From Arenicellales bacterium (GTDB taxonomy: Bacteria > Pseudomonadota > Gammaproteobacteria > Arenicellales > Poriferihabitantaceae), in NCBI GenBank assembly GCA_965116335.1, contig OZ220677.1, positions 1,315,933-1,379,932 on the forward strand: a stretch of 64,000 nucleotides of DNA, read 5' to 3'. Positions 8,457-59,942 of the stretch are shown piece after piece. The position numbers and the translations under genes are program-made. Numbering within the stretch: position 1 is the stretch's first letter; every line of letters begins with the position of its first letter. The notes under the pieces were generated by a model. The model saw only the letters and a list, made by a program, of their open reading frames with translations, was not told the origin of the DNA and ran no database searches.

Positions 8457-8471
8457 TGCCAGGCGATTAGC

Positions 8472-9338: not shown

Positions 9339-9406
9339 ACGCTCGCCGGAACCCCGATCAGGCCGGACGACTTACAAGCTGCTGGTCAGACCCCTGTCTT
9401 CTCCAG

Positions 9407-43647: not shown

Positions 43648-44260
43648 TCTATATACCTGGAGTACCCCGAACGGACGTAAAGTGTCCATCATGCTTGAGG
43701 AAACCGGCCTGCCCTACCAGGTTCACCCGGTCGACATCGGCAAGAATGATCAATTCGATGAAGATTTCCTGAAAATAAGCCCGAACAACAAGATTCCGGC
43801 TATCGTCGATGAAGAAAATGGCTTGAGCATGATGGAATCCGGCGCCATCCTGATTTATCTGGCCGACAAAACCGGGATGCTGATGCCACAGGCCAGGCGC
43901 TGGCAAATCCTGGAATGGCTGATGTTCCAGATGGGCGGTTTCGGCCCGATGCTCGGACAAGCCCATCACTTCCTGCACTTCAAGCCCGGAGCCAGTGAAT
44001 ACGCCGAGAAAAGATACAAGGTCGAAGCCCAGCGTCTCTATGCCGTACTCGACGACCACCTGGAAGACCATGAATACGTCGCTGGCGATTACTCAATCGC
44101 CGATATCGCACTATGGCCCTGGGCCTCCCGGTTCGAGTGGCAAAAAGTTGACATGACCGACTTCCCCAACATCAAACGCTGGTACACCCAAATAGCCACC
44201 CGCCCCGCTGTACAAAAAGGCTACCGCATCCCGGTAGATACAGAAATACCAATGCCGTAG
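43640..44260 (+). CDS. Glutathione S-transferase, YfcG-like (Nu class)
   Basis: MINLYTWSTPNGRKVSIMLEETGLPYQVHPVDIGKNDQFDEDFLKISPNNKIPAIVD is colinear with E. coli YfcG as I recall it. The ATG overlaps the ROK gene's end by 8 nt. Confidence 0.85.
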   Translation: MINLYTWSTPNGRKVSIMLEETGLPYQVHPVDIGKNDQFDEDFLKISPNNKIPAIVDEENGLSMMESGAILIYLADKTGMLMPQARRWQILEWLMFQMGGFGPMLGQAHHFLHFKPGASEYAEKRYKVEAQRLYAVLDDHLEDHEYVAGDYSIADIALWPWASRFEWQKVDMTDFPNIKRWYTQIATRPAVQKGYRIPVDTEIPMP

Positions 44261-44261
44261 T

Positions 44262-44315
44262 ATCACTCCCCCCTTGAGGGGGAGTCAAATCGTGCGAAGC
44301 GGATTTGGTGGGGGG
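44262..44315. repeat. REP double-hairpin module DE (reverse orientation); left border of the repeat-rich island
   Basis: ATCACTCCCCCCTTGAGGGGGAGTCAAATCG.GCGAAGCGGATTTGGTGGGGGG. The same element recurs at 47747, 48821, 50086 and 53911. Confidence 0.7.
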
Positions 44316-44321
44316 TTGTTT

Positions 44322-45887
44322 TCAGGCCGGGATTACTTTCACTGCGGCCAGATTCCGGTCTTTGGCACTGAACGCTATGCCGATCAGATGGATGGGTTGG
44401 TTTTGGCTGCGGTACTTGTCGGCATAACCTTTCTCCTGTATCTGTTCAATCGCCTGTTGTGCCGTATCCTCACTATTGCTGTCTGTATCTGACATCTTGA
44501 ACTCAAATACGAATACCTGATCTCCATGCAATACCACCATATCTGCCCGACCCCGGCTGCTGGAATCCTCTACCCGAAGGGTAAGACCAATCGTACAAAA
44601 GCAGGCATATAACATCCCCGCATACCAGGCTTCATATCGAGCCGGACTCCGGGTGGACTGCCACTGATACGGAATCCCGGCGAAGAATGATTGTAGATGC
44701 TCCGTGAATCCATCGAAGTCATTGGCTACCAGCAGACGCGCCAGTTGATCGCCCTGATCTGCTGTTTCGATTCTGCGTCCTGTGATATAACCGAGCAATC
44801 CATGGTTCAGACTCTGTCGCACCTCGAAGTTCGGATAATCCAGCGTGTAGAGAGTCCGTGCACCATCCCATTCTCGTTCGACAAGGGTTAAGTAGCCGGT
44901 CTGAAACAACAGGGCATCAATGGTGATGTCATCTATATCGAAGGTGGAGAGTAAGTCTTCATCAGAGATACGATTCTCCAGTTCCAGTGGACTGATTTCC
45001 CGATCCATCATGACGCGAAACAGGAAAGTCGGGGAACCGGTCTCAAACCAATGCGACTTGAACTGGCGTTTGCGGAACAACAGCAATAGATCAAATGGAT
45101 TGTACAGTTTCTCTTCTCCGAGCCAGTGATAGCCGTTATACCATTTACGGATTTCATCCCGGTCAAGACCGGGTAACTCCGGGGCGAATACGGTGTCGAG
45201 GTCTTTGTCGGTATAGCCGCAGATCGTAGCAAACTCTGGATCCAGGCTGATATTGTCCAGGTTGTTGAGGCCGGAGAACAAACTCACTTTCGAGAACATA
45301 CTGATGCCGGTGACGAAGACGAAGCGGACATCCCGGGCACTGTCCTTGATGATGCCGTAGAAGCCACGCAGGTAATCCCGGTTGGCTCTGGCCATTTCCG
45401 GGTTATCCAGTACATCCAGAATCGGTTTGTCGTATTCGTCTACCAGAATGACGACCTTTCGCCCGGTCTGTGCATGCAGGCGATTCAGTATGTTTCTCAG
45501 ACGGCGGGGGCCGGTGTGCGACTCAGTGGCTTGAGTAAGTCCGTAACGACGTTCTACACTTTCCAACTGCTCGATAATGTCGCCATCCAGTTCGCCAGGC
45601 TCGTTGTACTTGCCACCAAAGCTCAATCGCACCACGGGATGTTTGACCGACCAATCCCAGTGCGGATGGATATGCAACCCCTGAAACAGGACTTCATTGC
45701 CCTCGAACAGTTCCTGTAATGTATCGATCAGCAGACTCTTGCCGAATCGACGTGGGCGAGACAGGAAATAGAAACTCCCCATTTCGACCAGTCGCTGGAT
45801 ATGAGGGGTCTTATCGACGTAGTAGCAGTCCTGTTCCCGAATGGTACGGAAATCCTGGATACCGATGGGGAGTCTATGGCGAGTCAT
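44322..45887 (-). CDS. AAA-ATPase_like domain + PD-(D/E)XK (PDDEXK_9-like) protein
   Basis: N-terminus LPIGIQDFRTIREQDCYYVDKTPHIQRLVEMGSFYFLSRPRRFGKSLLIDTL is the hallmark of this family. The C-terminus RGRADMVVLHGDQVFVFEFK looks like a nuclease core. Confidence 0.8.
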   Translation of the reverse strand: MTRHRLPIGIQDFRTIREQDCYYVDKTPHIQRLVEMGSFYFLSRPRRFGKSLLIDTLQELFEGNEVLFQGLHIHPHWDWSVKHPVVRLSFGGKYNEPGELDGDIIEQLESVERRYGLTQATESHTGPRRLRNILNRLHAQTGRKVVILVDEYDKPILDVLDNPEMARANRDYLRGFYGIIKDSARDVRFVFVTGISMFSKVSLFSGLNNLDNISLDPEFATICGYTDKDLDTVFAPELPGLDRDEIRKWYNGYHWLGEEKLYNPFDLLLLFRKRQFKSHWFETGSPTFLFRVMMDREISPLELENRISDEDLLSTFDIDDITIDALLFQTGYLTLVEREWDGARTLYTLDYPNFEVRQSLNHGLLGYITGRRIETADQGDQLARLLVANDFDGFTEHLQSFFAGIPYQWQSTRSPARYEAWYAGMLYACFCTIGLTLRVEDSSSRGRADMVVLHGDQVFVFEFKMSDTDSNSEDTAQQAIEQIQEKGYADKYRSQNQPIHLIGIAFSAKDRNLAAVKVIPA

Positions 45888-46035
45888 TATCCATGTTCTT
45901 TGAGGAAGGGTTCAGCCATCATGCCACCCAATGCAGGCGTATGCAAGTACGCTAAGATCAATCTACATGGTAATCATCCCTGCAGCCACACGAACAATGT
46001 ATAATGGAATCACAATCAGACAAGTAATCAGGATT

Positions 46036-46257
46036 ATGGGTAGACAATTCACAGCGATCATTGAAAAAGAAGAAGGCGGATATGTATCGTTATGTCCGCA
46101 GTTGGATATTGCAAGCCAGGGTGATACTGTTGCTCAGGCGAGAATGAATCTCCAGGAAGCATTAGAGCTTTTTTTTGAGACGGCATCTACCGAAGAAATC
46201 ACACAGCGGCTGCATTCGGAAGTCTATATTACCCAAATAGAGGCAGCGGTTGGCTAA
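46036..46257 (+). CDS. hicB: HicB-family antitoxin (short, UPF0150-type)
   Basis: MGRQFTAIIEKEEGGYVSLCPQLDIASQGDTVAQARMNLQEALELFFE matches the HicB N-domain pattern. Confidence 0.8.
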   Translation: MGRQFTAIIEKEEGGYVSLCPQLDIASQGDTVAQARMNLQEALELFFETASTEEITQRLHSEVYITQIEAAVG

Positions 46258-46366
46258 ATTAAAAGTGCTGTCCGGTCAGCAAGTTTGTCAGATACTCAGT
46301 GGATTCGGGTTTGAGAAGGTAAGACAACGGGGAAGTCATGCAATAATGCAAAAAGCGGGGAAATGA
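46250..46366 (+). pseudogene. hicA: Truncated hicA toxin gene (N-terminal ~37 codons only)
   Basis: (L)AKLKVLSGQQVCQILSGFGFEKVRQRGSHAIMQKAGK* matches the HicA KLPxxSGxE...GF...RQxGSH pattern but lacks the C-terminal half. The break coincides with the first base of the sequence shared by all four downstream tandem units (GGGGAAATGATTGGCCTG). Confidence 0.7.
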
Positions 46367-46375
46367 TTGGCCTGT

Positions 46376-47026
46376 TCAGGAGAAAATCTGTGGTTTGAAA
46401 TTGTCCTTGTTGATAATGCTGGCGCTGTTGCCGGTGGCTCTGATTACGAATAATCCCTGTTTCTCTGCGTAGACATGCGCTTGTTCATCAGATTTTAACC
46501 AGGCCATCGCTCCATAGACGGTGTTTTTCTTAAAACGCGGCATGCGAGTCGTAACCTTACCCACACTGACCAGGAAATCCTTGACATCCTGCGCCTTCAA
46601 GGTGGTCTTGACTTCAACCACTACAATTTCCTGACCATTGGCCGCAATAATGTCATATTCAAAGTTATCATCGGAGCCGCTTTGTGAAATATTCCGGTAA
46701 ATCTGGTAAACATGAACGCCCTTCTCCTGTAACATCGCAACCAAATCCCCCTCTACCAGACTCTCCACCAACCGTCCCCACCGGCTGTTAAAAGAAGCTT
46801 CGTTCTTTTTAATCTGCTTGTCGGTTTCTTTCATTCGTCTGTCGGTTTCCTTCATTTCCTGCATGAGCCTTTCATGGTCGGCGGCCTGCCTGGCAGCGAT
46901 TTCTGCTATTTCCTGCATGGCTTTTTCATGTCTGGCAGCTTCTCTGGCAGCACCTTCCTCCTGGGCAGCGGCAGTTCTTTCCAAAATCGCCCAGATTTCG
47001 TCTGGAGTGGGTACGGTGGTGGTCAT
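46376..47026 (-). CDS. Coiled-coil + PD-(D/E)XK nuclease-fold protein (DUF3782-like), paralog P1
   Basis: 216 aa. Has a Glu/Ala/Arg-rich N-terminal coiled coil. The C-terminal FEYDIIAANGQEIVVVEVKTTL gives a D-x12-E-V-K motif. Reverse-strand TATAAT (47057-47062) and an AAGGA RBS lie upstream. Confidence 0.8.
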   Translation of the reverse strand: MTTTVPTPDEIWAILERTAAAQEEGAAREAARHEKAMQEIAEIAARQAADHERLMQEMKETDRRMKETDKQIKKNEASFNSRWGRLVESLVEGDLVAMLQEKGVHVYQIYRNISQSGSDDNFEYDIIAANGQEIVVVEVKTTLKAQDVKDFLVSVGKVTTRMPRFKKNTVYGAMAWLKSDEQAHVYAEKQGLFVIRATGNSASIINKDNFKPQIFS

Positions 47027-47132
47027 TTTGATATTCCTTACGGGTAGCGATTGCGGATTATAGCAGAATCGGGGTTGGAGGCGGAGACTGTTCGGGTCTA
47101 TGACATCATTTAATCACAAAGCCCATATTGTT

Positions 47133-47242
47133 GTGGATTCCCGCCTGCGCGGGAAGGACGGGTTGGGGCGGGGGTTGATGGTTGGGTCCCCCCATCACAC
47201 CCGCTTTGCGGGATGTGATTCCCCCTCAAGGGGGGAATGATG
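47133..47242. repeat. REP cluster: module A 47133-47161, module DE 47186-47242
   Basis: Direct reading: hairpins TTCCCGC/GCGGGAA and ATTCCCCC/GGGGGGAAT. Confidence 0.7.
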
Positions 47243-47257
47243 TGATGGTGGGTTGTG

Positions 47258-47566
47258 TCAATCCGTAATTACCGGCCACTGCTCTACCACGCCGGATAAA
47301 TGCCCTATCTGTTGCGTAAGCTGGTTAATTTGCTGGTTGCCCTGATACACAAACCCCAGTATGACCAGTGTCAAAACAAAATGTAATCCGAACATCCAGC
47401 GCAATCCGGCTACATCTCGCTGGACTCCGGCAATGTCAGACTTTGTTGCTAACTGTTCGCCCTGATGCGCGACTGCCTCGGCTACCGCTTCGGCCTGGCT
47501 TGATTCAAACCCGGCTGCTTGCAGTTTTCGTGCTGTCGCCAGTGTGTCGATGGTATACGCTGCCAT
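47258..47566 (-). CDS. DUF1640/CCDC90-like tail-anchored coiled-coil protein, paralog D1 (head N1, tail C1)
   Basis: MAAYTIDTLATARKLQAAGFESSQAEAVAEAV...LATKSDI fits the FDTLxxxxxLxxAGxxxxQAEA...LATKxDL pattern. One C-terminal TM, MFGLHFVLTLVILGFVY. Confidence 0.75.
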   Translation of the reverse strand: MAAYTIDTLATARKLQAAGFESSQAEAVAEAVAHQGEQLATKSDIAGVQRDVAGLRWMFGLHFVLTLVILGFVYQGNQQINQLTQQIGHLSGVVEQWPVITD

Positions 47567-47636
47567 GTCTGTTTCTCCGCTTGTTATTTTATATGTGTCC
47601 TCTGTGGATGGATTCTGCCTGAATCCGTCCGCCCGG

Positions 47637-47800
47637 TCAACGGTAGCGGGCGACCACAGAGGGTCGCCCCTACGATGACTTTACGTGCGGTATCTGAATG
47701 GTTGTGGATTCCCGCCTGCGCGGGAAAGACGGGTTGGGACGAGAAAATCACTCCCCCCTTGAGGGGGAGTCAAATCCGCTTGCGGATTTGGTGGGGGGAC
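47637..47800. repeat. REP cluster: B 47637-47674, A 47704-47732, DE (reverse) 47747-47800
   Basis: Direct reading. The same B-A-DE order recurs at 48711-48874. Confidence 0.75.
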
Positions 47801-47823
47801 GTCGGGGGAAATGATTGGCCTGT

Positions 47824-48627
47824 TCAGGAGAAAATCTGTGGTTTGAAATTGTCCTTGTTGATGATGCTGGCACTGTTGCCGGTGGCTCTGATTACAAATA
47901 ATCCCTGTTTCTCTGCATAGACATGCGCTTGCTCATCAGACTTTAACCAGGCGATCGCTCCATAGACGGTTTTGTCCTTAAAACTCTGCATTCGAGTCGT
48001 AACCTTACCCACACTGACCAGGAAATCCTTGACATCCTGCGCCTTCAAGGTGGTCTTGACTTCAACCACTACAATTTCCTGACCATTGGCCGCAATAATG
48101 TCATATTCAAAGTTATCATCGGAGCCGCTTTGTGAAATATTCCGGTAAATCTGGTAAACATGAACGCCCTTCTCCTGTAACATCGCAACCAAATCCCCCT
48201 CTACCAGACTCTCCACCAACCGTCCCCACCGGCTGTTAAAAGAAGCTTCGTTCTTTTTAATCTGCTTGTCGGTTTCTTTCATTCGTCTGTCGGTTTCCTT
48301 CATTTCCTGCATGAGCTCTTCATGGTCGGCGGCCTGCCTGGCAGCGATTTCTGCTATTTCCTGCATGGATTTTTCATGTCTGGCATCCTCTCTGGCGGCA
48401 GCTTCCTTCCGCCTGGCATCTTCTATGGCGGCGGCTTCCTTCCGCCTGGCATCCTCTATAGCGGCGGCTTCCTCCTGTCTGGCAGCAGCAGCTTCCTCTC
48501 TGGCAGCAGCAGCTTCCTGTCTGGCAGCGGTTTCTTTGCTGATGGCGGCGGTTTCTTCCAGGTTGGCGGAAACTTCTTTCAGAATCGCCCAGATTTCGTC
48601 TGGAGTGGGTACGGTGGTGGTGGTCAT
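47824..48627 (-). CDS. Coiled-coil + PD-(D/E)XK nuclease-fold protein, paralog P2 (longest coiled coil)
   Basis: 267 aa from ATG 48627 (MTTTTVPTPDEIW). The track ORF extends to 48825 only by reading through REP hairpins. The C-terminal ~150 aa are nearly identical to P1, P3 and P4. Confidence 0.8.
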   Translation of the reverse strand: MTTTTVPTPDEIWAILKEVSANLEETAAISKETAARQEAAAAREEAAAARQEEAAAIEDARRKEAAAIEDARRKEAAAREDARHEKSMQEIAEIAARQAADHEELMQEMKETDRRMKETDKQIKKNEASFNSRWGRLVESLVEGDLVAMLQEKGVHVYQIYRNISQSGSDDNFEYDIIAANGQEIVVVEVKTTLKAQDVKDFLVSVGKVTTRMQSFKDKTVYGAIAWLKSDEQAHVYAEKQGLFVIRATGNSASIINKDNFKPQIFS

Positions 48628-48710
48628 TTCGACATTCCTTACAGGTAGCGATTGCGGATTATAGCAGAATCGGGGTTGGAGGCGGAGACTGTTCGGGATC
48701 GGAACGGGTG

Positions 48711-48874
48711 TCAACGATAGCGGGCGACCACAGAGGGTCGCCCCTACGATGACTTTACGTGCGGTATCTGAATGGGTGTGGATTCCCGCTTGTGCGGGAA
48801 TGACGGGTTGGGACGAGAAAATCACTCCCCCCTTGAGGGGGAGTCAAGTCCGCTTGCGGATTTGGTGGGGGGAC
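48711..48874. repeat. REP cluster: B 48711-48748, A 48778-48806, DE (reverse) 48821-48874
   Basis: Direct reading. Confidence 0.75.
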
Positions 48875-48897
48875 GTCGGGGGAAATGATTGGCCTGT

Positions 48898-49647
48898 TCA
48901 GGAGAAAATCTGTGGTTTGAAATTGTCCTTATTGATGATGCTGGCGCTGTTGCCGGTGGCTCTGATCACGAATAATCCCTGTTTCTCTGCATAAACATGC
49001 GCTTGTTCATCAGATTTTAACCAGGCTATCGCTCCATACACGGTGTTATCCTTGAAACGCGGCATGCGAGTCGTAACCTTACTCATACTCACCAGGAAAT
49101 CCTTGACATCCTGCGCCTTCAGGGTGGTCTTGACTTCAACCACTACAATTTCCTGACCATTGGCCGCAATAATGTCATATTCAAAGTTATCATCGGAGCC
49201 GCTTTGTGAAATATTCCGGTAAATCTGGTAAACGTGAACGCCCTTCTCCTGTAACATCGCAACCAAATCCCCCTCTACCAGACTCTCCACCAACCGTCCC
49301 CACCGGCTGTTAAAAGAAGCTTCGTTCTTTTTAATCTGCTTGTCGGTTTCTTTCATTCGTCTGTCGGTTTCCTTCATTTCCTGCATGAGCTCTTCATGGT
49401 CGGCGGCCTGCCTGGCAGCGATTTCTGCTATTTCCTGCATGGCTTTTTCATGTCTGGCATCTTCTATGGCGGCGGCTTCCTTCCGCCTGGCATCCTCTAT
49501 AGCGGCGATTTCTTTTTGGCTGGCGCGAAATTCTGCCATTTCCTGTCTGCCTTTTTCATGGGCCGCGGCGGTTTCCTCCTGGGCAGCGGCGGTTCTTTCC
49601 AAAATCGCCCAGATTTCGTCTGGAGTGGGTACGGTGGTGGTGGTCAT
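48898..49647 (-). CDS. Coiled-coil + PD-(D/E)XK nuclease-fold protein, paralog P3
   Basis: 249 aa from ATG 49647. Same leader, RBS and C-terminal domain as the other paralogs, with a different coiled-coil insert (HEKGRQEMAEFRASQKEIAAIEDARRKE...). Confidence 0.8.
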   Translation of the reverse strand: MTTTTVPTPDEIWAILERTAAAQEETAAAHEKGRQEMAEFRASQKEIAAIEDARRKEAAAIEDARHEKAMQEIAEIAARQAADHEELMQEMKETDRRMKETDKQIKKNEASFNSRWGRLVESLVEGDLVAMLQEKGVHVYQIYRNISQSGSDDNFEYDIIAANGQEIVVVEVKTTLKAQDVKDFLVSMSKVTTRMPRFKDNTVYGAIAWLKSDEQAHVYAEKQGLFVIRATGNSASIINKDNFKPQIFS

Positions 49648-49730
49648 TTCGACATTCCTTACAGGTAGCGATTGCGGATTATAGCAGAATTGGGGTTGGA
49701 GGCGGAGACTGTTCGGGATCGGAACGGGTG

Positions 49731-50139
49731 TCAACGATAGCGGGCGACCACAGAGGGTCGCCCCTACGATGACTTTACGTGCGGTATCTGAATGGTTGTG
49801 GATTCCCGCCTGCGCGGGAAAGACGGATTGGGGCATGCGATGACGGTTGGGTCCCCCCATCCAATCCGGCTGCGGATTGGATTCCCCCTCAAGGGGGGAA
49901 TGATGTTGTAGAGCCTGCGCCTGACCGTTATCGTAGGGGAGGGTCTTGTGCCCTCCCGGGAATGTCGGGCGGGTATCAACGGTAGCGGGCGACCACAGAG
50001 GGTCGCCCCTACGATGACTTTACGTGCGGTATCTGAATGGGTGTGGATTCCCGCTTGTGCGGGAATGACGGGTTGGGACGAGAAAATCACTCCCCCCTTG
50101 AGGGGGAGTCAAGTCCGCTTGCGGATTTGGTGGGGGGAC
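49731..50139. repeat. REP cluster: B 49731-49768, A 49798-49826, DE 49851-49905, C (reverse) 49932-49958, B 49976-50013, A 50043-50071, DE (reverse) 50086-50139
   Basis: Direct reading. Seven modules in 409 bp. Confidence 0.75.
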
Positions 50140-50162
50140 GTCGGGGGAAATGATTGGCCTGT

Positions 50163-50879
50163 TCAGGAGAAAATCTGTGGTTTGAAATTGTCCTTATTGA
50201 TGATGCTGGCGCTGTTGCCGGTGGCTCTGATTACGAATAATCCCTGTTTCTCTGCATAAACATGCGCTTGTTCATCAGACTTTAACCAGGCGGTCGCTCC
50301 ATAGACGGTTTTGTCCTTAAAACTCTGCATTCGAGTCGTAACCTTACCCACACTGACCAGGAAATCCTTGACATCCTGCGCCTTCAAGGTGGTCTTGACT
50401 TCAACCACTACAATTTCCTGACCATTGGCCGCAATGATGTCATATTCAAAGTTATCATCGGAGCCGCTTTGTGAAATATTCCGGTAAATCTGGTAAACAT
50501 GAACGCCCTTCTCCTGTAACATCGCAACCAAATCCCCCTCTACCAGACTCTCCACCAACCGTCCCCACCGGCTGTTAAAAGAAGCTTCGTTCTTTTTAAT
50601 CTGCTTGTCGGTTTCTTTCATTCGTCTGTCGGTTTCCTTCATTTCCTGCATGAGCTCTTCATGGTCGGCGGCCTGCCTGGCAGCGATTTCTGCTATTTCC
50701 TGCATGGCTTTTTCATGTCTGGCATCCTCTATGGCGGCGGCTTCCTCCTGTCTGGCAGCAGCAGCTTCCTGTCTGGCAGCGGTTTCTTTGCTGATGGCGG
50801 CGGTTTCTTCCAGGTTGGCGGAAACTTCTTTCAGAATCGCCCAGATTTCGTCTGGAGTGGGTACGGTGGTGGTGGTCAT
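50163..50879 (-). CDS. Coiled-coil + PD-(D/E)XK nuclease-fold protein, paralog P4
   Basis: 238 aa from ATG 50879. Matches P2 but lacks two internal repeat units. Confidence 0.8.
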   Translation of the reverse strand: MTTTTVPTPDEIWAILKEVSANLEETAAISKETAARQEAAAARQEEAAAIEDARHEKAMQEIAEIAARQAADHEELMQEMKETDRRMKETDKQIKKNEASFNSRWGRLVESLVEGDLVAMLQEKGVHVYQIYRNISQSGSDDNFEYDIIAANGQEIVVVEVKTTLKAQDVKDFLVSVGKVTTRMQSFKDKTVYGATAWLKSDEQAHVYAEKQGLFVIRATGNSASIINKDNFKPQIFS

Positions 50880-50962
50880 TTCGACATTCCTTACAGGTAG
50901 CGATTGCGGATTATAGCAGAATTGGGGTTGGAGGCGGAGACTGTTCGGGATCGGAACGGGTG

Positions 50963-51290
50963 TCAACGATAGCGGGCGACCACAGAGGGTCGCCCCTACG
51001 ATGACTTTACGTGCGGTATCTGAATGGTTGTGGATTCCCGCCTGCGCGGGAAGGACGGGTTGGGGCGTAGGAGGACGGGTGGTTGGGGTGTGGGTTGGCG
51101 GATGGTTGGGGCGTGGGATTACGGTTGTGCCCCCCCATCCAATCCGGTTGCGGATTGGATTCCCCCTCAAGGGGGGAATGATGTTGTAGAGCCTGCTCCC
51201 GAACGTTATCGTAGGGGAGGGTCTTGTGCCTTCCCGCGAATGTCGGGCGGGTATCAACGGTAGCGGGCACCCACAAGGGGCACCCCTACG
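50963..51290. repeat. REP cluster: B 50963-51000, A 51030-51058, DE 51128-51183, C (reverse) 51210-51236, B variant 51254-51290
   Basis: Direct reading. The B variant has stem GGGCACCC/GGGTGCCC in place of GGGCGACC/GGTCGCCC. Confidence 0.75.
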
Positions 51291-51318
51291 ACCAAGCCGG
51301 GGGCAGGCGGCTTACGCT

Positions 51319-53766
51319 TTACTCCTTCTCTGCGTGATAAAAGCCTGCGGCTGCGCCGACGACGCTTGGGTCGTCCAGTTCGCCGGCATTGTAAAACAGT
51401 GCTTCGAAATCACCGAAGAAGCCGGTCGGGCGTTGTTCGAAGCGTTGGCCCTGGTCGTTCCCCATCTCGCCGTAAGCTTGCCAGCCCCAACGGCCACTTA
51501 CTGTTTTGCCGCCATCGTAAGTAGCGCCTCTTACGCCATTGGCGCCAATATATCCAGCAGTTCTTTCATCTAAAACAGTTGTAGGGAAAGCGTCCATGGT
51601 TGTCAGAGGGATACTCCATGCAGGATCGACATGACCTTCGCCTGCCACCGCCCTGAAATTGTCAATCGTGCCATTAAGGGTCGGAGTCGTGCCGAAGGTC
51701 GCATTTAGTGTCACGTCCGCCTCGAAGTGGCCGGATGCAGTGGTCATGGCGTCTCCGGCGCCGGTCCTGCGTGCAGACAGGCCGTGTGCATCTCCGCTGT
51801 AGGTGGCGCTGCCAGCAAGGCCACGGTCACTGTCACCAAAGTTCAGGTTGCTCACTGATACGTCTGCTGTCCCAACCCAGCCGATGCGACCCTGGAGCGT
51901 GAGGCTGTTGACGTCGTCGTCAATTCCCTCCAGCCACAAGCCGTAATCGACGTAGTTATCGACTAACTCATAGACACCGTCTCCGTCTGAATCCATATAA
52001 CGGGACATCTCGGTGTTGTAGCCAAGCTCGCCCTGCCGGTCGCTATCCACAACAGGGCTGAAGTAAAAGCCATCACCCAAGTACTTCACCTTCACAACCT
52101 CATTCTCACCCTCACCATTAATAATCGTAATCGTATTCTCATTCAAATCACAGCCACCACTCCGATCACAGTAAAGCGTCCCTGCCATGCCGTTCAGCTG
52201 ACCGTGAAAGAAACCATACTGGCTAACCTGGTTGAGGACACTTATGCCGCCCGCGGGGGCGCCGCCCTCACCGAACGTGCCTTCCGCCCTGACGACGAAA
52301 TCAGACAATTTCGGACGGGTCTGAAAATTGATGGCATAATGATTCTGCGGAAGGCCTGTTTCGGCGTGCTTAGTAGCATTTATCGTATTGTCTGGATTGC
52401 GGAAAGTCCGACGACTGAGCCCCCAGTCATTGTTGTCTTCGGCGATCTGCCTGAACGTCATGGTTCCTTCCGGGGCGGCGCGGAGAAAGACATGGGCACT
52501 GGTATCGAGATCCATGAGGTCGCCGGTGGTGTTGATAACAGGGTCAGAATCAGACCCTCGTATCTGTGCATTTGCTCTTGGCCTATCATAAGCGAGCAAT
52601 GCAAACACCATCTCCGCTTTTTCCTGCTCGCTGACATCGCCCAGCGCGGTCTCCCAACGCGTAATGTCCTTATTAAGGGCAGTCTTGAGATTTTCGAGGG
52701 AGGTTGTGATCTCCTCAACCAACCCACCCTCTCCATTCTCTCCACCAACCACTACCGCTTCAGCCTCCTTAGCCTCCTGATCGCTTCTCTTATCATTCTC
52801 GGCGGTCGTAAGCCGCTCGGCTTCCTCGCTGGCTTCCGCCTCCGCCCGGGTCGCGGCTTCGAACTCCTGCTTCGCCTCTATGTATGCTTCTGCCATCCTT
52901 TTTTCAGCCGCTTCCATCCGATATCTAGCGGCTGCCTCACTCGCAGCCTCAATCTCAATCTCCTTGTCCATAATATCCTGGTTGGTAGCATCAGGGCTTT
53001 GTTGAGGGTCTTTCAACACTGCCAATTCTAACCTAGCATCGGCGGCGTGGGCATCGGACTCAAGAGCATCCTGCTCAAGCTCCATGATTTCCATGTTCAG
53101 AGGATTGTACACTGCCTCTTTCTGACCAAGAGCCTGTACGGCTGTTGCGTACACCGTATTGGCCTCACTCGCTTCTCCAGCAAGACCCTCCGCTTCTTCA
53201 GCAAGACCTGCGGCTTCGGCACCTAAATCACTGTATATCTGCTTGGCAGTCTTAAGATCTTCCTCAACTTTCGCAATCCCGGCCTTCATCGCGTCGACCT
53301 GCGATTGCGCTTCTGCCGTGATGCCCGCGGATACGCCCATGGCAGCGGCGATGACCTGGTTGGATTCCAGATAGATAAGGTTAGCGCCGGTCTCCACTGC
53401 CGCTCTGTTCAATATATCAGGCACCTCTGTTACGGCTTCTTGCGCTTCATCTCTGGCCGTCATTGCATCCTCCACCGGGTCATCACTGGGCGTAACAGGG
53501 TCCGGGGTGTCGCCTCCGCCAGGGCTGGTTGGGCTGGTTCCACCACCACCGCCACCACCGGCCGTGCTTCCATCTCCACTGTCCGTATCGCCGCCTCCGT
53601 TGTCGCCGCCGGTATTGCCGTCCATATTTCCGGTGTTGGGTTGTTCAGGAGCTACCGCTGTGCCTCCCCCACCTCCGCAGGCGGTCAGCAGCAGGCTCAG
53701 GCTCACTGCAACCAGAACGGATACTATCGAATTGATTTTGTTTGTCTCTTGACCCAGATTACTCAT
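51319..53766 (-). CDS. Large lipoprotein with coiled-coil region and C-terminal TbpB/fHbp-like beta-barrel domain (putative surface lipoprotein), paralog L1
   Basis: Lipobox SLSLLLTAC followed by GGGGG. A Gly/Asp/Thr/Pro-rich linker precedes an Ala/Glu-rich helical region. The C-terminus SATYSGDAHG..GHFEADVTLNATF..LNGTIDNF..GFFGDFEALFY..GFYHAE resembles the 8-stranded barrel of transferrin-binding-protein-B-like lipoproteins. Confidence 0.7.
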   Translation of the reverse strand: MSNLGQETNKINSIVSVLVAVSLSLLLTACGGGGGTAVAPEQPNTGNMDGNTGGDNGGGDTDSGDGSTAGGGGGGGTSPTSPGGGDTPDPVTPSDDPVEDAMTARDEAQEAVTEVPDILNRAAVETGANLIYLESNQVIAAAMGVSAGITAEAQSQVDAMKAGIAKVEEDLKTAKQIYSDLGAEAAGLAEEAEGLAGEASEANTVYATAVQALGQKEAVYNPLNMEIMELEQDALESDAHAADARLELAVLKDPQQSPDATNQDIMDKEIEIEAASEAAARYRMEAAEKRMAEAYIEAKQEFEAATRAEAEASEEAERLTTAENDKRSDQEAKEAEAVVVGGENGEGGLVEEITTSLENLKTALNKDITRWETALGDVSEQEKAEMVFALLAYDRPRANAQIRGSDSDPVINTTGDLMDLDTSAHVFLRAAPEGTMTFRQIAEDNNDWGLSRRTFRNPDNTINATKHAETGLPQNHYAINFQTRPKLSDFVVRAEGTFGEGGAPAGGISVLNQVSQYGFFHGQLNGMAGTLYCDRSGGCDLNENTITIINGEGENEVVKVKYLGDGFYFSPVVDSDRQGELGYNTEMSRYMDSDGDGVYELVDNYVDYGLWLEGIDDDVNSLTLQGRIGWVGTADVSVSNLNFGDSDRGLAGSATYSGDAHGLSARRTGAGDAMTTASGHFEADVTLNATFGTTPTLNGTIDNFRAVAGEGHVDPAWSIPLTTMDAFPTTVLDERTAGYIGANGVRGATYDGGKTVSGRWGWQAYGEMGNDQGQRFEQRPTGFFGDFEALFYNAGELDDPSVVGAAAGFYHAEKE

Positions 53767-53910
53767 CTACCCAGACTCCAGATTGTTGGTTGGTTCAGCA
53801 TCAGCGCAGGCGCCAACGCCCGAATTAGCAATATCCAGCGATATTAAACGCAACAATAAACAAAGTCAAACAAAAGAACATCCAATCATTGCCCGGTCTG
53901 CGGCAAGAAA

Positions 53911-54060
53911 ATCACTCCCCCCTTGAGGGGGAGTCAAATCCGCTCACGGATTTGGTGGGGGGAATTGACGAGTGGGGCTGGGGATGATGGTAGCGGGAGG
54001 GCACAAGACCCTCCCCTACGCATCGGTAATTGCGGATTTCGTATGGTTGTGGATTCCTGT
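53911..54060. repeat. REP cluster: DE (reverse) 53911-53963, C 53994-54020, truncated A from 54049
   Basis: Direct reading. Confidence 0.7.
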
Positions 54061-54104
54061 CATCGTTCGTTGTTTGACGGATTGTGTCAATTCTCCCTGA
54101 TGCG

Positions 54105-54506
54105 CTACTGCCTCGGCCATTGTTCTACTACGCCGGATAAATGTCCTACCTGTTGCGTAAGCTGGGTGATTTGCTGGTTAATTTGCTGGTTGCCTTGATA
54201 CACAAACCCTAATATGACCAGCGTCAAAACAAAATGTAATCCGAACATCCAGCGCAACCCGACTACATCTTGCCGGACTCCTGCCACTTCCCCCCGGACT
54301 CCGGCAATTTCCTGGCGTAGTGATTTTTCCACCGCTTTCAGGTCGGACTGTACCAGTTTCAGGTCGGCCTTTGTTGCCAGGTCGTCTCCATGGCTTCCTA
54401 CTACTTCGGCGACTGTCTCGGCCACCGCCTCAGCCTGGATAGTCTCAAAACCTGCCTTTTCCAACTTCCGCATGGTGGCCAGGGTATCAATCGCTATGGT
54501 TGTCAT
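54105..54506 (-). CDS. DUF1640-like tail-anchored coiled-coil protein, paralog D2 (head N2, tail C1)
   Basis: MTTIAIDTLATMRKLEKAGFETIQAEAVAETVAEVVG...LATKADLKLVQSDLKAVEKSLRQEIAGVRGEVAGVRQDVVGLRW, then a TM segment and YQGNQQINQQITQLTQQVGHLSGVVEQWPRQ. Confidence 0.75.
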   Translation of the reverse strand: MTTIAIDTLATMRKLEKAGFETIQAEAVAETVAEVVGSHGDDLATKADLKLVQSDLKAVEKSLRQEIAGVRGEVAGVRQDVVGLRWMFGLHFVLTLVILGFVYQGNQQINQQITQLTQQVGHLSGVVEQWPRQ

Positions 54507-54561
54507 GATTCTTTCCTGATGTTTATTTGTATTGGTTCCTGTTATTGTTCGCCCTGATACG

Positions 54562-55026
54562 CTATTGCTTCGTCCACTGTTCTACTACGCCGGATAAATG
54601 CCCTACCTGTTGCGTAAGCTGGGTGATTTGCTGGTTAATTTGCTGGTTGCCTTGATACATAAACCCGAATATAACCAGATTCAAAGCAACCACAAACCCG
54701 GCAACAATCCCGAATGTCCAGCGCAATCCGGCTACTTCCCCTCGGACTCCGGCAATTTCCTGGCGTAGTGATTTTTCTACCGCTTTCAGGTCGGACTGTA
54801 CTACTTTCAAGTCGGACTGTACTACTTTCAGGTCAGACTGTACTACTTTCAAGTCGGACTTCACTACTTTCAGGTCGGACTGTACCAGTTTCAGGTCGGC
54901 CTTTGTTGCCAGGTCGTCTCCCTGGCGTCCTACTACTTCGGCCACCGCCTCAGCCTGGACAGTCTCAAACCCTGCCTTTTCCAGCTTCCGCATGGTGGCC
55001 AGGGTATCAATCGCTATGGTTGCCAT
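54562..55026 (-). CDS. DUF1640-like tail-anchored coiled-coil protein, paralog D3 (head N2, expanded heptad array, tail C2)
   Basis: 154 aa. Contains DLKLVQSDLKVVKSDLKVVQSDLKVVQSDLKVVQSDLKAVEK. Tail is TFGIVAGFVVALNLVIFGFMYQGNQQ...EQWTKQ. Confidence 0.75.
   Translation of the reverse strand: MATIAIDTLATMRKLEKAGFETVQAEAVAEVVGRQGDDLATKADLKLVQSDLKVVKSDLKVVQSDLKVVQSDLKVVQSDLKAVEKSLRQEIAGVRGEVAGLRWTFGIVAGFVVALNLVIFGFMYQGNQQINQQITQLTQQVGHLSGVVEQWTKQ
54783..54900. repeat. 21-bp tandem repeat (CTTTCArGTCrGACTGTACTA, 5-6 units) encoding the heptad VVQSDLK inside D3
   Basis: Units at 54783, 54804, 54825, 54846 and 54867, with a partial unit at 54888. The other paralogs carry 0-1 units. Confidence 0.9.
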
Positions 55027-55083
55027 GAGCCTTTCCTGATGTTGATTGGTATTGGTTCGAAGATTACTGCACGGCTTGCTCGG

Positions 55084-55422
55084 TCAACCTGCCGTCAAGA
55101 TGGCCATTATTCCGGCCACTTCCTGTCCGATAGTGAATACCTGCCACGTCAGGGCAGCCATAATCCCCAACATAGCCAGCGTAAAGGCAAAATGTAATCC
55201 GAACATCCAGCGCAATCCGGCAATTTCCTGGCGTAGTGATTTTTCCACCGCTTTCAGGTCGGACTGTACCAGTTTCAGGTCGGCCTTTGTTGCCAGGTCG
55301 TCTCCCTGGCTTCCTACTACTTCGGCGACTGTCTCGGCCACCGCCTCAGCCTGGACAGTCTCAAAACCTGCCTTTTCCAGCTTCCGCATGGTGGCCAGGG
55401 TATCAATCGCTATAGTTGTCAT
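55084..55422 (-). CDS. DUF1640-like tail-anchored coiled-coil protein, paralog D4 (head N2, tail C3)
   Basis: Tail MFGLHFAFTLAMLGIMAALTWQVFTIGQEVAGIMAILTAG. Confidence 0.75.
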   Translation of the reverse strand: MTTIAIDTLATMRKLEKAGFETVQAEAVAETVAEVVGSQGDDLATKADLKLVQSDLKAVEKSLRQEIAGLRWMFGLHFAFTLAMLGIMAALTWQVFTIGQEVAGIMAILTAG

Positions 55423-55479
55423 GATCCTTTCCTGATGTTGGTTGGTATTGGTTCGAAGATTACTGCACGGCTTGCTCGG

Positions 55480-55752
55480 TCAACCTGCCGTCAAGATGGC
55501 CATTATTCCGGCCACTTCCTGTCCGATAGTGAATACCTGCCACGTCAGGGCAGCCATAATCCCCAACATAGCCAGCGTAAAGGCAAAATGTAATCCGAAC
55601 ATCCAGCGCAATCCGGCAATGTCGGACTTTGTTGCTAACTGTTCGCCTTGATGCGCTACTGCCTCGGCTACCGCTTCGGCCTGGCTTGATTCAAACCCGG
55701 CTGCTTGCAGTTTTCGTGCTGTCGCCAGTGTGTCGATGGTATACGCTGCCAT
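55480..55752 (-). CDS. DUF1640-like tail-anchored coiled-coil protein, paralog D5 (head N1, tail C3)
   Basis: Head is identical to D8 and D1. Tail is identical to D4. Confidence 0.75.
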   Translation of the reverse strand: MAAYTIDTLATARKLQAAGFESSQAEAVAEAVAHQGEQLATKSDIAGLRWMFGLHFAFTLAMLGIMAALTWQVFTIGQEVAGIMAILTAG

Positions 55753-55790
55753 GTCTGTTTCTCCGCTTGGTATTTCCTTATGTATCCTCT

Positions 55791-55819
55791 ATGGATGGAT
55801 TGTGCCTGAATCCATCCAT
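55791..55819. repeat. Leader hairpin ATGGATGGATT-N7-AATCCATCCAT specific to N1-type DUF1640 genes (also at 57126-57154; degenerate copy near 47607-47630)
   Basis: 11-bp perfect stem about 37 nt upstream of the D5 start, followed by a truncated REP A module. Confidence 0.6.
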
Positions 55820-55916
55820 CCGGTCAATGATCCGTATGGTTGTGGATTCCTGTCATCGTTCGTTATTTGACGGATTGTGTCAATTCTCCCTGATGCGCTA
55901 CTGCCTCGGCCACTCC

Positions 55917-56243
55917 TCAGCCTGCCGTCAAGATGGCTACATCGCGCCAGATAGCGAACAGAAAGCCCAACATAATCAGCGTAAAGGCAAAATGTAATCC
56001 GAACATCCAGCGCAATCCTGCCACTTCCCCCCGGACTCCGGTAATTTCCCCCCGGACTCCGGCAATTTCCTGGCGTAGTGATTTTTCTACCGCTTTCAGG
56101 TCGGCCTTTGTTGCCAGGTCGTCTCCCTGGCGTCCTACTACTTCGGCGACTGTCTCGGCCACCGCCTCAGCCTGGACAGTCTCAAACCCTGCCTTTTCCA
56201 GCTTCCGCATGGTGGCCAGGGTATCAATCGCTATGGTTGTCAT
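55917..56243 (-). CDS. DUF1640-like tail-anchored coiled-coil protein, paralog D6 (head N2, tail C4)
   Basis: Tail MFGLHFAFTLIMLGFLFAIWRDVAILTAG. The middle has a duplicated GVRGEI/GVRGEV unit. Confidence 0.75.
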   Translation of the reverse strand: MTTIAIDTLATMRKLEKAGFETVQAEAVAETVAEVVGRQGDDLATKADLKAVEKSLRQEIAGVRGEITGVRGEVAGLRWMFGLHFAFTLIMLGFLFAIWRDVAILTAG

Positions 56244-56343
56244 GAGCCTTTCCTGATGTTGATTGGTATTGGTTCCTATTGCGTCAAGGCAAAATGTAAT
56301 CCGGTAATGTCGGACTTCGTCGCTAACTGTTCGCCTTGATGCG

Positions 56344-56694
56344 CTACTGCCTCGGCCATTGCTCTACTACGCCGGATAAATGCCCTACCTGTTGCGTAAG
56401 CTGGGTGATTTGCTGGTTAATTTGCTGGTTGCCTTGATACATAAACCCGAATATGACCAGATTCAAAGCAACCACAAACCCGGCGACAATCCCGAATGTC
56501 CAGCGCAATCCGGCTATTTCCTGGCGTAGTGATTTTTCTACCACTTTCAGGTCGGCCTTTGTTGCCAGGTCGTCTCCCTGGCGTCCTACTACTTCGGCGA
56601 CTGTCTCGGCCACCGCCTCAGCCTGGACAGTCTCAAACCCTGCCTTTTCCAGCTTCCGCATGGTGGCCAGGGTATCAATCGCTATGGTTGTCAT
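56344..56694 (-). CDS. DUF1640-like tail-anchored coiled-coil protein, paralog D7 (head N2, tail C2)
   Basis: Head as in D6, tail as in D3. Confidence 0.75.
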   Translation of the reverse strand: MTTIAIDTLATMRKLEKAGFETVQAEAVAETVAEVVGRQGDDLATKADLKVVEKSLRQEIAGLRWTFGIVAGFVVALNLVIFGFMYQGNQQINQQITQLTQQVGHLSGVVEQWPRQ

Positions 56695-56794
56695 GATCCT
56701 TTCCTGATGTTGGTTGGTATTGGTTCCTATTGCGTCAAGGCAAAATGTAATCCGTCAATGTCGGACTTCGTCGCTAACTGTTCGCCTTGATACG

Positions 56795-57088
56795 CTACTG
56801 CCTCGGCCATTGTTCTACTACGCCGGACAAATGTCCTACCTGTTGCGTAAGATGGGTGATTTGCTGGTTAATTTGCTGGTTGCCTTGATACACAAACGCC
56901 AGTATGACCAGTGTCAAAGCAACGTGTAATCCGAACATCCAGCGCAATCCGGCAATGTCGGACTTTGTTGCTAACTGTTCGCCTTGATGCGCTACTGCCT
57001 CGGCTACCGCTTCGGCCTGGCTTGATTCAAACCCGGCTGCTTGCAGTTTTCGTGCTGTCGCCAGTGTGTCGATGGTATACGCTGCCAT
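56795..57088 (-). CDS. DUF1640-like tail-anchored coiled-coil protein, paralog D8 (head N1, tail C1)
   Basis: Head as in D5 and D1, tail as in D2. Confidence 0.75.
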   Translation of the reverse strand: MAAYTIDTLATARKLQAAGFESSQAEAVAEAVAHQGEQLATKSDIAGLRWMFGLHVALTLVILAFVYQGNQQINQQITHLTQQVGHLSGVVEQWPRQ

Positions 57089-57125
57089 GTCTGTTTCTCC
57101 GCTTGTTATTTCCTTATGTATCCTC

Positions 57126-57469
57126 TATGGATGGATTGTGCCTGAATCCATCCATCCGGTCAATGATCCGTATGGTTGTGGACTCCCGTTTGCGGATTGG
57201 ATTCCCCCTCAAGGGGGGAATGATTTGGATACATGGATCGAAATGATGTTGTAGGGGAGGGTCTCTGTGCCCTCCCGCGAATGATCGAACAGGAATCAAC
57301 GGTAGCGGACAGGCACAGAGGCCTGTCCCTACGATGACAGTAGGTACACCATCCGTATGGTTGTGGATTCCCGCTTGCGCGGGAAAGACGGTTGGGGCGG
57401 GGGGATTACGGTTGTGTCCCCCCATCCAATCCGTTTGCGGATTGGATTCCCCCTCAAGGGGGGAATGAT
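57126..57469. repeat. REP cluster: N1 leader hairpin 57126-57154, A/E hybrid + D about 57177-57225, C (reverse) 57250-57276, B variant 57295-57332, A 57362-57390, DE 57415-57469
   Basis: Direct reading. The B variant has stem GGACAGGC/GCCTGTCC. Confidence 0.7.
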
Positions 57470-57492
57470 TTGATGATGGTTGTGGATTGCGG

Positions 57493-59616: not shown

Positions 59617-59710
59617 TTTGTTTGTTTCCTGGTAGATCAGCAATGGTCAGCAATTCTGCCCAACCTGAAAACTACTGTCAACCGTCGGGACAGGAATTAC
59701 CGGTACAGGA

Positions 59711-59935
59711 ATCCAACGGTAGCGGGAGGGTACAAGACCCTCCCTTACGATTACGTTACGCACAGCATCTGAATGGTTGTGGATTCCCGTTTGCACGGGA
59801 AAGACGGATTGGAGCGTGGGTGGCGATTGTGTCCCCCCATCCAATCCGTTTGCGGATTGGATTCCCCCTCAAGGGGGGAATGATATGAGGGCGGATTGGG
59901 GCGTGGGGTGGCGATTGCGGGAGGGTACAAGACCC
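59711..59935. repeat. REP cluster: B/C hybrid 59711-59749, A 59779-59807, DE 59831-59884, partial C 59918-59935; right border of the island
   Basis: Direct reading. Confidence 0.7.
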
Positions 59936-59942
59936 ACCACTG

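Follow-up and report, generated by a model that had tools for sequence, protein, structure and literature searches.

Tandem genes for a predicted coiled-coil PD-(D/E)XK endonuclease with stalks stepped by heptads and hendecads in an Arenicellales bacterium

Nucleases that join a coiled coil to a PD-(D/E)XK domain form a sizeable family, known as domains of unknown function (DUFs) and from a passing remark of Hartmann et al. (eLife 2016; PMC4786415), according to whom the coiled-coil N-termini in this endonuclease family are grouped in DUF3782. The same study linked the DUF3782 endonucleases to a second family, DUF1640, via a beta-layer motif that opens the stalk, [aliphatic]-A-T-K-[polar]-[DE], and not via genomic proximity (PMC4786415). 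DUF1640 proteins are bacterial relatives of mitochondrial MCUR1/CCDC90B; the DUF1640 literature searched contained no paper on a prokaryotic function, and DUF8196, a further domain considered here, was not found in the literature searched. In the HsdS subunits of Type I restriction systems (e.g. EcoR124I versus EcoR124II), slippage varies the number of in-frame repeats in a coiled-coil spacer that lies between two DNA-recognition domains, which sets a functional distance and changes the recognised sequence. Here we describe four tandem genes, P1 to P4, from an Arenicellales bacterium (contig OZ220677.1, positions 1,315,933 to 1,379,932; this whole stretch of 64,000 nt is referred to as the window), which encode predicted coiled-coil PD-(D/E)XK endonucleases with stalks of unlike length. 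Gene coordinates are positions in the window, all four genes are on the minus strand, and stalk distance is counted from a tryptophan at the N-terminal tip to a conserved tryptophan of the nuclease domain (open reading frames, ORFs, and alignment):

46376-47026, minus strand: P1, 216 aa, stalk distance 71 residues
47824-48627, minus strand: P2, 267 aa, stalk distance 121 residues
48898-49647, minus strand: P3, 249 aa, stalk distance 103 residues
50163-50879, minus strand: P4, 238 aa, stalk distance 92 residues

The genes lie head to tail, just as a preceding sequence-only reading had placed its four tandem paralogues. They have in common the N-terminus MTTT(T)VPTPDEIWAIL and 183 nearly identical C-terminal codons, in which copies differ from each other at 8-21 sites per 549 shared nt. 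Codons 54-104 are without a single nucleotide difference (153 nt identical in 4/4). The ratio of non-synonymous to synonymous differences (pN/pS) between copies is 0.08-0.33, which points to purifying selection on all four; they are neither pseudogenes nor collapsed repeats, and an earlier worry that a repeat had been collapsed in assembly does not fit copies that are this distinct. A nucleotide-level alignment of the four units mapped the homogenised block from about 70 nt 5′ of the ATG (CCCGAACAGTCTCC...) to 20 nt past the stop (CAGGCCAATCATTTCCCC). The common first ~15 codons, the D-x12-E-V-K motif and the 18-bp 3′ tail that had been read from the letters were all recovered. Stalk length is not the sole variable part, as had been supposed. 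Two alternative N-proximal blocks also differ, ERTAAAQEE in P1/P3 and KEVSANLEETAAISKE in P2/P4, and non-synonymous changes are clustered at residues 155-174. The sharing of variants is mosaic: P1 and P3 both have MPRFK.N, P2 and P4 both have MQSFKDK, and this pairing points to duplication of a two-gene unit, gene conversion, or both.

AlphaFold models built with homologue alignments predict a helix at residues 8-101 of P1, followed by the nuclease core (predicted local distance difference test, pLDDT, 91), and a single helix at residues 9-143 of P2 (pLDDT 89). Confidence drops at residues 121-130 of P2, and both models have a hinge of low confidence at the invariant K..F..W segment. The predicted core occupies the C-terminal 134 aa and has the alpha-beta-beta-beta-alpha-beta order of the PD-(D/E)XK fold; Foldseek matched it with probability 1.0 to the PD-(D/E)XK nucleases Cdn1, AF1548, Can2, Card1, NucS/EndoMS and the R2 endonuclease domain, in agreement with the fold proposed from the sequence. 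Residues E88, D125, E138 and K140 (numbered as in P1) show no variation in two alignments, one of 45 and one of 54 homologues (41-98% identity). The D125-x12-E138-V-K140 motif, whose conservation had been named as a check, and the Glu upstream of it form the E...D...(D/E)xK signature of the superfamily. Overall, each protein runs from a conserved tip motif (TP[DE]EIWxIL) through a single long helix and a short conserved hinge (KK.E..F..W) into the nuclease domain, which is constant in size and whose first helix is continuous with the stalk. Tip residues W12 and L15 are kept in at least 90% of homologues. The N-terminus of P1-P4 is polar and on inspection gives no sign of a signal peptide, as had been noted.

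Assignment to a described family is less direct. Pfam Hjc (PF01870) passes its cut-off of 21.1 at 25.6-26.6 bits (P1 26.6), through profile positions 3-52 of 93 only. The NCBIfam Hjc equivalog (NF040854) reaches 21.9 bits against a cut-off of 70, and the proteins lack the single-domain architecture of Hjc (~130 aa), having an N-terminal stalk of 80-130 residues. Pfam DUF3782 (PF12644) scores 14.3-16.3 bits, below its cut-off of 24.4; the architecture described for DUF3782, a coiled-coil stalk N-terminal to a PD-(D/E)XK endonuclease, is present in the predicted structures. The earlier label of a DUF3782-type protein fails at the Pfam score and stands in so far as PMC4786415 groups the coiled coils of the family there. 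PF26618 (DUF8196) appears in the precomputed annotation of P1, where it is marked weak, and of many homologues; a local Pfam scan returned no PF26618 row. In PADLOC and NCBIfam nothing matched at full length or above cut-off. What PADLOC did match was confined to the nuclease domain and the stalk next to it, with the models CARF_PDDEXK and Csx1 matching the nuclease region, and no N-terminal CARF domain was found, the N-terminal region being one continuous helix in the AlphaFold models. A sequence search of solved structures returned designed coiled coils only, plus Hjc at E = 0.92, and was uninformative; the fold search with Foldseek was needed for this reason. The P1-P4 family is an uncharacterised group with an Hjc-like, putatively DUF8196, domain and a DUF3782-type stalk.

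The length differences among P1-P4 are located in the helical stalk and consist of in-frame units of 21 bp and 33 bp. The repeat unit had been read as ~10 aa; the actual units are of 7 aa and 11 aa. Tandem Repeats Finder located the following:

48380-48484, minus strand: 33-bp tandem repeat in the P2 stalk, 3.2 copies, 88% matches, score 161, encoding AAIEDARRKEA (11 aa)
48473-48569, minus strand: heptad units in the P2 stalk, as tandem repeats of 21 bp, 2.3-3.0 copies
50725-50821, minus strand: 21-bp repeats in the P4 stalk, equivalent to those of P2

In order of length, the stalk distances in the window (71, 92, 103 and 121) are separated by steps of 21, 11 and 18 (=7+11) residues. A closer inspection of the wider family reveals the same rule. 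Wherever the domain-start motif could be located, the nuclease domain, from the conserved Trp to the end, is mostly 134 residues long (range 133-139; one truncated entry excepted), and the distance from tip Trp to domain Trp ranges from 35 to 126 residues. Divided by seven, the stalk distances (n=228, from related sequences, so that the counts are not independent) leave remainders of 0 (79 stalks), 4 (76), 1 (41), 5 (22), 2 (9), 6 (1) and 3 (0). All but one (227/228) thus fall in five of the seven classes, the series that 7a+11b predicts for between zero and five hendecads. The pattern extends over phyla that differ in their repeat sequences, stalk sequence being highly variable between lineages and the nuclease domain conserved. 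Stalk length changes by whole heptads and hendecads, via DNA repeats, across phyla.

Arrays of this kind are not confined to the window. Among 79 related loci, compared within a neighbourhood of 6 kb, 25 contain at least two family ORFs, which are on the same strand except in locus L063. Arrays with unlike stalk lengths were found in several phyla, mostly in sponge-symbiont genomes:

L003: four copies, stalk distances 67, 74, 88 and 114 residues
L011 (Gammaproteobacteria), 797-8389: eight complete or nearly complete copies and a fragment (nine family ORFs), stalk distances 67, 74, 78, 81, 82, 82 and 85 residues
L023: four copies, stalk distances 35, 42, 42 and 49 residues
L027: three copies, stalk distances 42, 56 and 67 residues
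L038 (Bdellovibrionales), 5050-9840: six copies ~13 bp apart, stalk distances 64, 68, 75, 78, 82 and 110 residues

Further same-strand arrays with unlike stalk lengths are present in L051 and in the archaeal locus L059. The arrays in L038 and L011 are the largest seen of this nuclease family, and their stalks differ by 7-aa and 11-aa units. Identity of the nuclease domains within an array is 96-100% in the window, L011, L038 and L051, and 69-87% in L003, L023 and L027, with a between-locus median of 53%. The recurrence of these arrays indicates that unlike stalks on near-identical catalytic domains are a repeated outcome, not peculiar to this genome. Moreover, the family is multi-copy, as had been stated for similar proteins: at least nine paralogues are recorded on the same 2.99-Mb contig, and other genomes hold arrays of 3-9 copies. 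A conserved operon partner was sought and rejected, 123 flanking ORFs being spread over 171 Pfam families, each matched in at most three ORFs.

Each of the four genes in the window has its own expression signals, listed here along with leaders, tails and spacers:

47057-47065 (P1), 48658-48666 (P2), 49678-49686 (P3) and 50910-50918 (P4), minus strand: extended -10 box TGCTATAAT, 30 nt before the ATG (regular expression)
47071-47096 (P1), 48672-48697, 49692-49717 and 50924-50949, minus strand: start of the homogenised 5′ leader, CCCGAACAGTCTCCGCCTCCAACCCC (nucleotide alignment and regular expression)
46357-46374, 47805-47822, 48879-48896 and 50144-50161, minus strand: 18-bp 3′ tail after the stop, CAGGCCAATCATTTCCCC
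47750-47770 (after P2), 48824-48844 (after P3) and 50089-50109 (after P4), minus strand: terminator-like hairpin ACTCCCCCTCAAGGGGGGAGT with a T-rich run (terminator scan)
49648-50162 (P4-P3), 48628-48897, 47567-47823, 47027-47257 and 50880-51318, minus strand: spacers of palindromes resembling repetitive extragenic palindromic (REP) elements (fuzzy matching)

A regular-expression scan of the minus strand at 46-58 kb found TGnTATAAT exactly four times, once per gene. The TATAAT that had been placed ~30 nt ahead of the start codons turns out to be an extended -10 box. The AAGGA ribosome-binding site reported with it is also there, 8 nt 5′ of each ATG in P1-P4. A two-hexamer sigma-70 scan had missed the four boxes because they have no -35 element. 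The hairpin downstream of P1 differs from the one common to P2-P4. With a promoter box, ribosome-binding site and hairpin of their own, P1-P4 look like four separate transcription units. Taken together, the predicted nuclease genes of the locus look active, have promoters of their own and evolve in concert as a tandem array.

The spacers of 231, 257, 270 and 515 bp are filled with REP-like palindromes, as the sequence-only reading had it for the range of 231 to 515 bp. Fuzzy-matching counts show such units to be concentrated at 44-60 kb and rare in the rest of the window, and Rfam returned no match on 44-60 kb, so that they do not belong to a curated RNA family. The units are of at least seven kinds, e.g. 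GTAGGGGCGACCCTCTGTGGTCGCCC, TTCCCGCGCAGGCGGGAATCCA and ATTCCCCCCTTGAGGGGGAAT, and are chained in intergenic spacers; the chains span 44260-60040 and are strongly concentrated around both the nuclease array and a second array described below, with scattered units at ~25.5, 30.6 and 35.6 kb. They create long spurious ORFs that extend real genes upstream. Plus-strand ORFs of 81-132 aa also lie opposite each stalk-coding region (46818-47063, 48266-48664, 49340-49684 and 50605-50916); their translations are low-complexity and Ser/Ala/Cys-rich, and most likely they are not genes but arise from the repetitive GC-rich codons. REP elements are no general feature of the family, as the six copies of L038, with 13-bp spacers, have none.

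These data can be joined in a mechanism. The stalk is encoded by 21-bp and 33-bp repeats, in which slippage or unequal recombination would add or remove whole heptads or hendecads; steps of this size change the length and leave the coiled-coil register from tip to nuclease domain intact. A gene-plus-spacer unit of ~1 kb may have been duplicated by unequal crossing-over, for which the REP-like clusters of the spacers are plausible sites, and gene conversion would keep promoter, leader, tip, hinge and nuclease domain nearly identical. Slipped or unequal recombination had already been proposed for the locus, and the 21/33-bp stalk repeats, the mosaic variants and the 153 nt identical in all four copies fit that proposal. 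The stalk would oligomerise the enzyme and, at 1.5 Å for each of its 71-121 residues, form a rigid spacer ~10-18 nm long, and four separate strong promoters could then yield a set of active nucleases with differing reach in one cell. The reading that we favour, and consider moderately probable, is that P1-P4 are tandemly amplified, concertedly evolving, stand-alone genes for a cytoplasmic coiled-coil PD-(D/E)XK endonuclease whose stalk length is varied by slippage.

Several points weigh against this reading. Quantisation in units of 7 and 11 would also be the product of slippage alone, and does not by itself make length important. The hydrophobic periodicity of the stalk, 3.45-3.59 residues, is a moderate coiled-coil signal only and was not used as main evidence for that reason. 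Duplication mediated by REP elements is an argument from their position, and L038 carries an array without them. The case that P1-P4 are active nucleases is likewise drawn from predicted fold and conserved residues, in a family whose literature is the passing mention in PMC4786415. Lastly, P2-P4 are recorded on one contig only.

The alternative that survives best is neutral repeat instability, in which the stalk is an oligomerisation rod that tolerates register-preserving indels, its lengths carry no meaning, and the array reflects selection for dosage or a locus prone to duplication. The units of change are the 21-bp and 33-bp repeats themselves, and quantisation follows directly from their size; equal lengths do occur within arrays (82/82 in L011, 42/42 in L023), and the variability of stalk sequence between lineages, next to a conserved nuclease domain, also speaks for this reading. 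The idea of a length-variable sensor or ruler, put forward in the sequence-only reading, is compatible with the strict 7/11 quantisation and the recurrent arrays of unlike lengths, both of which are also expected of the rod. Against neutrality, gene conversion homogenises both flanks of the stalk, yet lengths differ in nearly all arrays, even where the domains are 98-100% identical, and the same quantisation is seen across phyla in which the repeats have different sequences. The conserved tip (W12 and L15) suggests a role for the distal end, and the neighbouring DUF1640 family has the same kind of stepped series. We regard neutral instability as possible but rather doubtful.

The distribution of the family bears on a role in defence. 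A word-indexed search gave 2,641 hits, and an exhaustive profile search, clustered at 50% identity, yielded 569 clusters at E<=1e-30 (2,490 at E<=1e-10). A genome scan with P1 alone confirmed no relative, its patterns being too specific; with an alignment as query it found at least 572, of which the best 80 loci were examined. The closest genomic relatives (41-61% identity) are in metagenome-assembled genomes of Candidatus Poriferihabitaceae and other Arenicellales, Bdellovibrionales, Thermoanaerobaculia and other Acidobacteriota, and Spirochaetia, with more distant members in the cultured Thiorhodospira sibirica ATCC 700588 (locus L045), Candidatus Competibacter, Bacteroidota and Methanospirillum. 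An occurrence of similar proteins in cyanobacteria and sulfur bacteria had been suggested; a purple sulfur bacterium is indeed among the distant relatives, and the best 80 loci include no Cyanobacteria. Searches of 2.9 million viral contigs and 72,556 PLSDB plasmids found no relative, which argues against a phage or plasmid origin.

Sponge-symbiont genomes are rich in defence genes. The closest relatives lie in such genomes, those of Candidatus Poriferihabitaceae deriving from sponge metagenomes (PMC12859430), and the genes appear to be host-borne, given their absence from the virus and plasmid collections. The nuclease domain resembles the CRISPR-associated effectors Can2, Card1 and Cdn1, and a few flanking genes match defence models (PDC-S01, DpdF, AbiEii, DrmD and a methyltransferase). 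An anti-phage or anti-plasmid nuclease, amplified and varied in its stalk through an arms race with inhibitors from mobile elements, would account for these observations. However, the full-length and above-cut-off matches to PADLOC and NCBIfam are missing, as is a sensor domain; the neighbours are mostly housekeeping genes, and self/non-self discrimination, for example by a methylase partner, is not evident. A defence role is unlikely on this balance. It partly overlaps with the partnership considered next, and both are refinements of the core reading and not strict alternatives to it.

The window contains eight genes of a second kind, small tail-anchored coiled-coil proteins resembling DUF1640, one of which had been omitted from the earlier account of the P2-P1 interval:

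47258-47566, minus strand: DUF1640-like tail-anchored coiled-coil gene between P2 and P1, 102 aa, beta-layer motif LATKSD, Pfam CCDC90-like 20.5 bits, below cut-off
54105-57088, minus strand: second tandem array, seven DUF1640-like genes of 133, 154, 112, 90, 108, 116 and 97 aa (jackhmmer and ORF list)

All eight contain LATKSD or LATKAD, with a hydrophobic stretch after GLRW, and so have both the beta-layer motif and the C-terminal membrane anchor of DUF1640/CCDC90-like proteins. Against the Pfam CCDC90-like cut-off (PF07798, 33.5), the copies at 54105-54506 (38.9 bits) and 55917-56243 (38.6 bits) pass; the 154-aa copy (28.2) and the 102-aa copy fall below it and have head and tail modules in common with the passing copies. 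Two head types and three tail types are combined as a mosaic. Measured from the beta-layer motif LATK[SA]D to GLRW, the stalks of the seven genes are, in order, 34, 55, 20, 2, 27, 13 and 2 residues long. Sorted by head type they form the series 2, 2, 9 (the last being the copy at 47258-47566) and 13, 20, 27, 34, 55, both in exact heptad steps. Some of the C-terminal tails weakly match Pfam MbeD/MobD (24.4 bits versus 21.6). The seven-gene array is bracketed by two large paralogous lipoproteins on the minus strand, at 51319-53766 and 57493-59643 (815 and 716 aa, 36% identical). Both have the lipobox LLLTACGGGG and a linker rich in Gly and Asp, together with a long helical region, rich in Ala and Glu, and a C-terminal part that is conserved; Pfam gave no significant match for either.

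A system in which the nuclease works with these membrane-anchored proteins, for example positioned at the inner membrane against incoming DNA and with matched stepped series, is suggested by their placing, one DUF1640-like gene being inside the nuclease array and seven more lying 3 kb upstream on the same strand. Such ORFs are also the commonest neighbour elsewhere, found within 6 kb in 9/79 loci from four phyla, while no Pfam family occurs in more than three of the flanking ORFs. In L017, L033, L048 and L066 (Bdellovibrionales, Acidobacteriota and Spirochaetia) a DUF1640-like ORF lies at most 44 bp from the nuclease, and two of these adjacent ORFs pass the CCDC90-like cut-off (43.1 and 48.6 bits). 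By a rough estimate, immediate adjacency in 4/79 loci exceeds chance unless the genomes carry ~100 DUF1640 copies. In L066 the DUF1640-like genes alternate with three gene kinds, of which one is a nuclease family member, and the Lupas laboratory had tied both families by the beta-layer stalk motif (PMC4786415). On the other side, 70/79 loci have no DUF1640-like ORF nearby, and the two families may do no more than expand in the same genomes and cluster in the same variable regions. Their stalks have no sequence similarity to each other, and the orientation of the pair varies, being same-strand upstream in some loci and convergent in others. Such a partnership is improbable as an explanation of the locus. 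A more specific form of it would be a two-part system of nuclease and DUF1640-like coiled coil, each a heptad-stepped series, that holds nuclease active sites at graded distances, either from the inner membrane or, should the stalk pair antiparallel, between the sites themselves, and cuts DNA, e.g. incoming DNA, at defined spacings, a ruler diversified by slippage; this we offer as speculation and think quite improbable.

The L066 locus has further features of its own. At 600-10300 (Spirochaetia, OZ241879.1) it has four DUF1640-like genes of differing stalk length, interleaved with paralogous coiled-coil proteins of 288 and 248 aa (no Pfam match, weak similarity to the nuclease profile), with an unrelated 369-aa protein with a Glu/Arg/Gln-rich tail, and with the one member of the coiled-coil nuclease family. 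A further tail-anchored coiled-coil gene lies at 9838-10302.

Spread of the nuclease as a selfish or mobile cassette, in the manner of a homing endonuclease, was also considered. The family is multi-copy and dispersed. In the related genome CBDBQH01, dispersed copies carry the same promoter and leader, with TGATATAAT and AAGGAG before the gene, and end in a similar 3′ tail, AACAGACCCAATCATTCCCCC, which is the first arm of a hairpin; they are alike from the -10 box to just past the stop and show no likeness beyond, which indicates that the copied unit is promoter plus gene. An independent metagenome assembly, L001, is colinear with window positions 47640-37006 at 98.97% identity and includes P1 and the 102-aa gene. 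Upstream of the latter, at 766-2195 of L001, an insertion sequence (IS) element with an rve transposase replaces one REP unit, the break corresponding to window position 47640; beyond the element L001 has a 765-bp REP chain and then ends, where the window has a 184-bp REP stretch followed by P2. The array border thus differs in structure between near-identical strains, and L001 is only partial proof of copy-number polymorphism. An IS element at this border would suit a mobile cassette. However, terminal inverted repeats, target duplications and a transposase were not found within the unit, relatives are missing from the viral contig and plasmid collections, and all four copies are under purifying selection, which together make this explanation very unlikely. 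Mis-expansion of one gene into four by the assembler can practically be dismissed: the single contig for P2-P4 and the lack of any returned encoding contig for P3 or for a further paralogue, P0004, would allow it, but each copy has its own pattern of single-nucleotide differences, stalk structure and spacer, P1 and its flanks recur on the independent contig L001, and comparable arrays occur in many unrelated assemblies.

Downstream of the array are genes of other kinds. A 521-aa protein with AAA-ATPase_like and PDDEXK_9 domains (Pfam E 6e-63 and 2e-22), from another uncharacterised nuclease-domain family, is encoded directly downstream of P1 (44322-45887, minus strand). Adjoining its gene is a small plus-strand ORF (45931-46257) with weak HicB/UPF0150-like antitoxin matches.

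In the literature searched, no description was found of the stepped-length arrays, the 7/11 quantisation or the genomic linkage to a second, stepped DUF1640 array. To a family otherwise known by name, the locus adds three regularities, namely stalks quantised by heptads and hendecads, recurrent tandem sets of unlike length and recurrent adjacency to DUF1640. If length is functional, the array would be a natural molecular ruler diversified by repeat slippage in a nuclease, and also a route to function for two DUF families. If length is neutral, the locus would still be a clean instance of concerted evolution, one where the indels allowed are limited by structure.

In comparison with described systems, the P1-P4 proteins are like the DUF3782/DUF8196 endonucleases (PF12644, PF26618) in the fusion of an N-terminal coiled-coil stalk to a PD-(D/E)XK domain. 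A further point in common is that bacterial members lack nonad beta-layers (PMC4786415), but the P1-P4 family scores below the PF12644 cut-off (14-16 bits versus 24.4). With the archaeal Holliday-junction resolvase Hjc (PF01870) they share the nuclease fold and the E...D...ExK signature; Hjc, however, is a single domain of about 120-140 aa without a stalk, whereas the P1-P4 family is mostly bacterial and multi-copy. In structure, the C-terminal domain comes closest to the nuclease domains of Can2, Card1, Cdn1 and NucS/EndoMS (Foldseek E 1e-4 to 3e-3), at a sequence identity of 12-23%; P1-P4 differ from these in having no CARF or other ligand-sensing domain and a single long helix at the N-terminus. 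The small genes of the window resemble the DUF1640/CCDC90-like (MCUR1 family) proteins of head-neck-stalk-anchor type and the stalks of trimeric autotransporters, sharing the beta-layer LATK[SA]D, the heptad stalk and the C-terminal anchor; unlike P1-P4 they have no nuclease domain, and their tie to the nuclease is one of genomic proximity only. By analogy, HsdS offers a parallel for the stalk itself, as short in-frame coiled-coil repeats vary in number there too in a DNA-cleaving system, cleavage by P1-P4 being predicted. Unlike in HsdS, no recognition domain is known for the P1-P4 family, whose spacer spans 35-126 residues, and its variants stand side by side as separate genes, not as alleles.

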